Positions 2,541 to 2,661 are shown, counted from the stretch's first letter. The stretch: DNA of 26,147 bases from Escherichia coli (GCF_003334355.1 NZ_QOWP01000043.1); one strand, 5' to 3'. Notes: a model not told the origin generated them from the letters alone. Translations and numbers: made by a program.

Positions 2541-2661
2541 GTTAGTTCACGGACACTTTTTGTTGGTTCAAAATGAGTTGATGTTGGTTCAATATTTTAG
2601 AAAAAACACAATAAAAACAACGCTCTTTACAAATTGAACCAACTGAACCAACTGAACCAAC
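2541..2661. repeat. Operator-like repeat array: GTTGGTTCA x3 at 21-bp phasing facing a contiguous (TGAACCAAC)x3
   Basis: Seen directly: GTTAGTTCA 2541..2549, GTTGGTTCA 2562..2570 and 2583..2591 (21-bp spacing), then the reverse complement TGAACCAAC three times in tandem at 2635..2661. Lies in the divergent intergenic region between the cassette and the PerC-like gene, overlapping a putative -35 region. Confidence 0.6.

Follow-up and report, generated by a model that had tools for sequence, protein, structure and literature searches.

SaPI origins comprise 6–12 iterons arranged around an AT-rich centre, at least two on each side, with the two sets facing opposite ways (PMC9371898, PMC6092414); Rep reads these iterons through a winged-helix domain within its C-terminal domain (PMC9371898). 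For phage-inducible chromosomal islands (PICIs), PMC6092414 (Fillol-Salom et al. 2018), which cites the origin work of Ubeda et al. 2007, places ori immediately 3′ of rep, and in EcCICFT073 a functionally tested ori is placed between pri-rep and the next gene (PMC6092414). EcCIMP1 of Escherichia coli MP1 depends on a P22-like helper phage, Kapi1, for both excision and transfer; the paper describing it mentions its ejection-protein cargo, which is unusual for a satellite, without explanation, and makes no mention of an origin or of iterons (PMC11773190). Satellite iteron origins and the EcCIMP1 family are already known, and the EcCIMP1-family origin is so far undescribed; in a limited literature search we found no account of a PICI origin that is split or duplicated.

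The GenBank annotation of P4 (NC_001609) puts crr just past the 3′ end of the alpha gene, with ori at a distance of 4.5 kb. A single iteron, repeated with a 9-bp period, makes up each of the two sites. The alpha protein reportedly binds ori and crr alike, and both sites are required in cis. Distant sites bridged by an initiator are also familiar from iteron plasmids, as with R6K γ and its α and β origins and with handcuffing in P1, F and RK2. Here we describe an array of 9-bp repeats upstream of an E. coli perC gene that is most likely not a gene switch but a replication-origin module, and compare it with these systems.

Results and Discussion

The window (the whole stretch of 26,147 nucleotides analysed, E. 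coli GCF_003334355.1, NZ_QOWP01000043.1) is chromosomal and covers the right end of an island at tRNA-Thr (thrW), inserted between proA and the pao/yagU/ecp genes. The island is a PICI of the EcCIMP1 type, and so belongs to a family whose eponym has been mobilised experimentally by a helper phage. In complete relatives the gene order starts with the integrase, an AlpA-like HTH gene, an antirepressor, DUF4222, an Ash-family gene and the fused primase-helicase, continues with P22-type DNA-ejection-protein homologues, a variable accessory slot and perC, and ends with a 61-aa ORF, a pRiA4b-ORF3-family gene and a 119-aa ORF. The Gram-negative PICI gene set was read in such relatives, the window itself covering only the right end of the island: L001, L003, L107 and L162 have int beside tRNA-Thr, the AlpA-like HTH gene, DUF4222, pri-rep and perC, and their order of int, alpA, DUF4222, pri-rep and ori, with perC further on, is that of Gram-negative PICIs. 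The PerC of the window's relatives carries the same accession as EcCIMP1_025 of EcCIMP1 (WP_000617443.1) (PMC11773190). Strain SY033 is the closest relative, with 99.9% identity over 79–5300 and the full island present.

Window positions 1–78 are the end of an IS3-family element that interrupts the accessory region of the island. Related genomes match the window only from position 79, and the junction at 78/79 is absent from every complete E. coli genome in the collection, so that the left part of the island may be rearranged or deleted in the window's genome. The accessory slot is occupied by a variable cassette (675–2210, minus strand) of a 361-aa and a 145-aa ORF. Parts of a query spanning the array and perC matched 634 of 5,426 complete genomes; the cassette next to the array is common to only 32 of the 5,426. 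PADLOC gave no match for the cassette or for other island proteins, and in other islands an Abi-family gene takes the same slot (L004). The slot resembles a hotspot for accessory or defence genes, and its occupant here is uncharacterised.

Direct reading, a repeat finder and a pattern search concur on the layout of the array at 2541–2661, which consists of three spaced iterons on the plus strand, a 43-bp spacer and three contiguous iterons on the minus strand. The spaced set opens with GTTAGTTCA at 2541–2549 (from reading and pattern search), one mismatch away from the consensus GTTGGTTCA, and continues with exact GTTGGTTCA copies at 2562–2570 and 2583–2591, both returned by all three approaches, with start-to-start distances of exactly 21 and 21 bp. 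The preliminary description had listed three such repeats at exact 21-bp spacing; the spacing is as it stated, and the exact copies number two. In many relatives the first position is an exact GTTGGTTCA, and the second iteron is among the most conserved columns of 16 diverged arrays that, like this one, lie far from rep. The spacer (2592–2634), a candidate DNA-unwinding region on the basis of its composition, has 21% G+C against 50% for the whole window and holds a conserved box, AAAACAA-N5-CTTTACAAAT. Facing the spaced set across it are three head-to-tail copies of TGAACCAAC with a 9-bp period (2635–2643, 2644–2652 and 2653–2661), so that both the AT-rich spacer and the opposed contiguous triple of the preliminary description are borne out. 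A conserved right flank (ACACCTTTTTGCTTATCTATATAAT, 2662–2684) corresponds to a box that follows the triple in most distal units. In total, five exact non-overlapping copies of one 9-mer fall inside 130 bp; in 500 simulated first-order Markov sequences matched to the window in length and composition, the highest count was two copies in 493 and three in the other 7, and four or more never occurred. A full-text literature search for TGAACCAAC gave only unrelated primer or sequence matches among the matches listed, and the motif is absent from the supplements of the PICI paper. An Rfam scan of 2210–2700 gave a chance-level match only (E = 0.54, far below the gathering score) and the single-strand DNA fold is only modestly stable (z = −2.9); neither suggests an RNA or cruciform element.

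The gene with which the array travels was sought in surveys that started from rep, from the array and from perC. In a rep-first survey the C-terminal half of RepA, the fused primase-helicase of these islands, served as query, and 80 IMG/VR loci were fetched and added to earlier loci. An iteron array starts 24–38 bp after the RepA stop in all 87 tabulated rows (about 79 distinct contigs), over which Rep identity ranges from 64 to 100%. In these rep-adjacent arrays 2–3 contiguous copies are separated by some 45 bp from 2–3 inverted copies, which are spaced at 11 and 21 bp. In an array-first survey the exact 27-mer of the triple was scanned through IMG/VR and matched 52 contigs, seven of which were set aside because the match falls in coding Glu-Pro-Thr repeats and the other parts of the array are missing. 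For 36 of the 45 true arrays the RepA 3′ end is in the same contig, and in 33 of these 36 the triple lies 27–316 bp from the rep stop; for most of the others the contig stretch is too short to tell. The triple alone gives false positives, so the spaced inverted copies are needed to recognise an origin unit. Over the sequences surveyed, these results show that the association of the array with the 3′ end of rep is obligatory and that the array follows Rep, not PerC, which answers the question raised by the preliminary description of which gene it accompanies. Its alternative suggestion, an iteron for a DNA-binding protein, holds. The 27-mer of three TGAACCAAC copies was also observed within coding Glu-Pro-Thr repeats of unrelated viral proteins in L116, L125, L132–L134, L138, L144 and L150.

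In L001 (AMSCJX02) a second 9-mer cluster occupies 8985–9095, 26 bp after the stop of a 918-aa TOPRIM/DUF927 gene and 7.2 kb from the window-type cluster. On alignment the two clusters prove to be one unit of some 125 bp, present twice in opposite orientations. Both contain the spaced set of three, an AT-rich spacer that ends in CTCTTTACAAAT, the contiguous triple and ACACCTTTT, the spacer of the rep-adjacent copy having the same length. We refer to the rep-adjacent copy as unit A and to the window-type copy as unit B. SY033 has both units, 8.5 kb apart with unit A on the left, as has EcCIMP1 (about 8.5 kb), and in L001, L107 and L162 the distance from the rep stop to unit B is 7.2–8.5 kb. Pfam identifies a primase zinc ribbon, Toprim_3 and DUF927 in the Rep protein (WP_001244111.1 in EcCIMP1). 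The cognate protein of the array is most likely this fused primase-helicase, whose gene lies outside the window.

The preliminary description had proposed an operator that would control divergent promoters of the cassette and perC, with PerC, the 61-aa and the 119-aa protein as the candidates for binding it. The setting invites such a reading: the array sits in a 488-bp gap between divergent ORFs, from the start of the minus-strand 361-aa ORF (2210) to the perC ATG (2698), with 37 bp between the array and the downstream ATG, and a conserved TTTTGCTTATATAT-like box stands 3′ of the triple. That box recurs in most distal units regardless of the next gene, and in many elements the distal unit precedes unrelated sequence. 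The array is identical where PerC is only 51–54% identical (L020–L022), an allele comparison on which PerC autoregulation is rejected. Conversely, L004 and L017 keep an intact perC without spacer, triple and right flank, and in L095, L108 and L114 perC is about 2 kb from rep with unit B 8.4–10.5 kb away. The cassette on the left is variable, homology breaking at the array edge, and the array adjacent to the rep stop is not in a promoter context. A sigma-70-like promoter scan of 2150–2760 predicted none (1.9 expected by chance), which leaves the divergent promoters without support, and a terminator scan of the same interval found none. With an array linked to rep and independent of perC, with neither promoter overlap nor co-variation with a nearby regulator, we consider an operator very improbable and take perC (2698–2979, plus strand, 93 aa) to be a neighbour of the array rather than its partner. 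Iteron-binding initiators of plasmids often also repress promoters, so a secondary regulatory effect of Rep on downstream genes is conceivable.

Read instead as a Rep-binding, origin-type unit, the array matches the SaPI/PICI origin definition in its layout: six short iterons, three per side and opposed, surround an AT-rich centre of 43 bp and 21% G+C, and the iteron sequence is specific to a Rep lineage. Position is where it departs. Unit A lies where a PICI origin is expected, immediately 3′ of rep, whereas unit B, the window's unit, lies some 7–8.5 kb from rep and is inverted relative to its rep-adjacent twin. The EcCICFT073 ori region shares the two-unit layout, with CTGTCTACC as its 9-mer, and differs from the present islands in both iteron (GTTGGTTCA here) and initiator (TOPRIM/DUF927 here).

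P4 provides the closer parallel for two units apart. As in P4, one iteron occurs in two clusters separated by kilobases, with one cluster directly 3′ of a primase-helicase gene (L001, L107, L162 and about 20 further elements), iterons with a 9-bp period oppose inverted copies on the far side of a spacer some 40 bp long, and TGAAC forms the core of both iterons. The N-terminal primase domains are also homologous: over the first ~360 residues of RepA, identity to the primase portion of P4 alpha is 33%, and no similarity is detectable in the helicase and C-terminal parts that follow. The P4 iteron is TGTTCACC as against GTTGGTTCA here, and the island has no annotated P4 late genes, lacking sid, delta, psu and a cos module. 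By analogy, then, the array would work like ori and crr of P4 but stands outside the P4 family. A further difference is that many relatives of the island have no second unit, whereas P4 needs both of its sites in cis. With iteron plasmids the array shares repeated, here putative, initiator-binding sites at two loci that an initiator could pair. It differs from them in having a fused primase-helicase instead of a Rep/π-type winged-helix dimer, in showing no sign of copy-number control, and in that PICIs replicate only after induction.

The position of the second unit varies among relatives. It adjoins the first, about 170–330 bp after the rep stop, in some 18 elements (among them L019, L030, L034, L037–L046, L084 and L093), and in L034 the adjacent unit has the exact layout of the window, its three copies being spaced by 21 bp and followed by a spacer with CTTTACAAAT at its end and by the contiguous copies. 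In about 22 elements it is 4.8–10.5 kb away, its orientation relative to rep being invariant. Ejection-protein genes and the accessory slot separate the units in the window's family; in the diverged L070 the intervening genes are ssb, virion-protein-like genes and a small terminase. In about 40 RepA elements, with up to 10 kb of downstream sequence, a second unit was not seen, and it is accordingly not obligatory for the replicon. Taken together, we regard it as probable that the array of the window is the Rep-distal unit, unit B, of a split two-unit origin analogous to ori and crr of P4.

The distal units are conserved in a pattern that centres on the iterons. When 16 diverged distal units are compared, pairwise identity averages 0.87 in the iteron columns, 0.74 in the AT-rich spacer, 0.53 between iterons and 0.38–0.43 in the flanks, which, as read from these alignments, shows the iterons to be under purifying conservation. 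Three iteron specificities occur on one scaffold, namely GTTGGTTCA, GGTGGTTCA (L019/L048) and a GTTGTCTCA-type (L047), and each is uniform over all of the roughly ten copies of both units. A joint switch at every site is to be expected if the repeats co-evolve with a single protein that binds them by sequence. Iteron and initiator do co-vary, GTTGGTTCA occurring with RepA of 64–100% identity, CCTGTACC/CTATACC with a DUF5906-type Rep and CTGTCTACC in EcCICFT073. L019 (9166–9423) and L047 (some 330 bp beyond the rep stop at 7290) have near-identical downstream flanks and different iterons, and the greatest divergence within Rep falls in its last ~100 residues. This natural specificity switch could be used for mapping the residues with which Rep reads its iterons.

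A different Rep allele combines the shared N-terminal primase part (85% identity) with a DUF5906-type C-terminal part, and its gene has iterons of its own, CCTGTACC/CTATACC, in two clusters after the stop. Iterons of this type (CCTGTACC, CTATACC and GGTACAGG) were located in L003 at 10760–10880 and 11885–11990 and in L004 at 5745–5850 and 6855–6965, the clusters flanking two small genes (about 1.1 kb). A two-unit origin with an insertion between its units thus appears to recur under a different initiator. The islands with the DUF5906-type Rep nonetheless keep a GTTGGTTCA unit upstream of perC, with six copies in L003, seven in L008 and five in L012. In L004 (13969–13998) and L017 (9951–9980) only two spaced iterons are left, fused directly to the perC ribosome-binding region by a deletion that runs from GTTGGTTCAAAAT to AATCTGAGAGG and leaves perC intact. 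The DUF5906-type Rep is non-cognate, so function with a cognate Rep does not explain the presence of unit B in these islands; it could have a second role there or simply reflect recent module exchange. A search of IMG/VR found only three contigs with a DUF5906-type Rep, and the contrast between orphan and cognate units is drawn from few, closely related islands and is not statistically established. In E. coli genomes the similarity to the window ends either at the left edge of the array (2534–2539 or 2561) or just beyond its right end (2680). These breakpoints at the array edges place the origin units at module junctions, with rep modules exchanged around them.

The same observations bear on the possibility that unit B derives from an origin and is now an inert leftover, a half or duplicate displaced by module insertion or recombination. 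Module shuffling would give breakpoints such as those at 2539/2561 and 2680, unit B persists beside a non-cognate Rep at variable copy number (7, 6 and 5), its spacer and triple can be lost altogether (L004, L017), and the ~40 elements mentioned above have the rep-proximal unit alone in the available sequence. An inert remnant would hardly be expected, however, to retain iteron columns at 0.87 against 0.53 and about 0.4 for the sequence around them, or to keep three iterons per side in L001, L005, L009, L010, L020, L021, L107 and L162, which are all of the RepA islands of EcCIMP1 type examined. Its orientation relative to rep is, moreover, invariant, and variant iterons are homogenised over both units. 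On balance we judge an inert leftover unlikely and retain the distal half of a split origin as our reading.

Still less likely, and in our estimate barely credible, is that the array is a packaging (pac- or cos-like) site or a site-specific recombination site and not a replication element. The units bracket a packaging-type module in diverged elements, as the genes of L070 illustrate, and the array edges coincide with recombination breakpoints. Against this, the architecture is that defined for satellite origins, the array is tied to the 3′ end of rep and not to terminase genes, no terminase gene can be identified in islands of the EcCIMP1 type (PMC11773190), and repeats resembling integrase arm-type sites (TGGGGGTA) are found elsewhere, near both island ends.

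How a split origin of this kind might operate can be outlined. Helper-phage induction would lead to the synthesis of Rep, the C-terminal part of which would bind the 9-mers. The 21-bp phasing puts the spaced sites, two helical turns apart, on one face of the DNA, and the contiguous triple would act as a dense loading pad on the other side. The AT-rich spacer would then melt and the helicase be loaded. Units A and B would probably be bridged by Rep, a reasonable inference given the binding of P4 alpha to both ori and crr, and the bridged pair would act as a split origin, or unit B as a cis enhancer or second start site. Rep binding, melting, looping and any firing at unit B are each steps that we infer, protein-mediated looping being plausible.

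More tentatively, and with odds that we put clearly below even, the two units of EcCIMP1-type and related PICIs may form a split origin that brackets the module following rep, is bridged by the primase-helicase and doubles as a pair of recombination anchors, leaving behind orphan units that could be fired in trans. The bracketed module would comprise packaging or ejection-protein genes and the accessory or defence slot. If so, efficient replication would require the units as a pair resembling ori and crr of P4, the anchors would allow islands to swap cargo and even their rep modules, and the Rep of a co-resident or incoming island could fire orphan units.

The origin-module reading of the array locates the replication origin of EcCIMP1-family satellites, which are common in E. 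coli, and calls for re-annotation of the region upstream of perC, which it is tempting to mislabel as a regulatory operator. An origin physically split around a packaging or accessory module would depart from the rule that ori lies immediately 3′ of rep and would resemble P4; if functional, the split bears on satellite replication control and on the exchange of accessory and defence cargo at conserved origin repeats. The 9-mer array also offers a simple signature for finding the replicon and for typing Rep specificity.

Some further observations concern the repeats and the cargo of these islands. The copy number of the contiguous block ranges from two to four among relatives and differs between near-identical islands: unit A of SY033 has four contiguous 9-mers (L162, 8903–8938), and unit B has four in L008 (9929–9964) and L013 and two in L012 (9947–9964). 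Such variation in a 9-bp tandem block is consistent with slippage. EcCIMP1-type islands encode homologues of the P22 DNA-ejection proteins gp17, gp20 and gp16 together with a DUF2824 protein, and the MP1 island also encodes a protein with a lytic-transglycosylase domain. All of these genes lie between the origin units (9649–14017 in L162, 13481–18649 in L107 and 9721–13175 in L001). Integrase arm sites were considered for the array and rejected, since the array is some 2 kb from the island end and both ends are marked by another repeat, TGGGGGTA. There, a tandem repeat ATGGGGGTACTT(A/T)TGGGGGTAT occurs just upstream of int on the left (1922–1945 in L003) and after the 119-aa ORF on the right (4594–4617 in the window); these end repeats may be integrase arm-type sites that mark the attL and attR regions.
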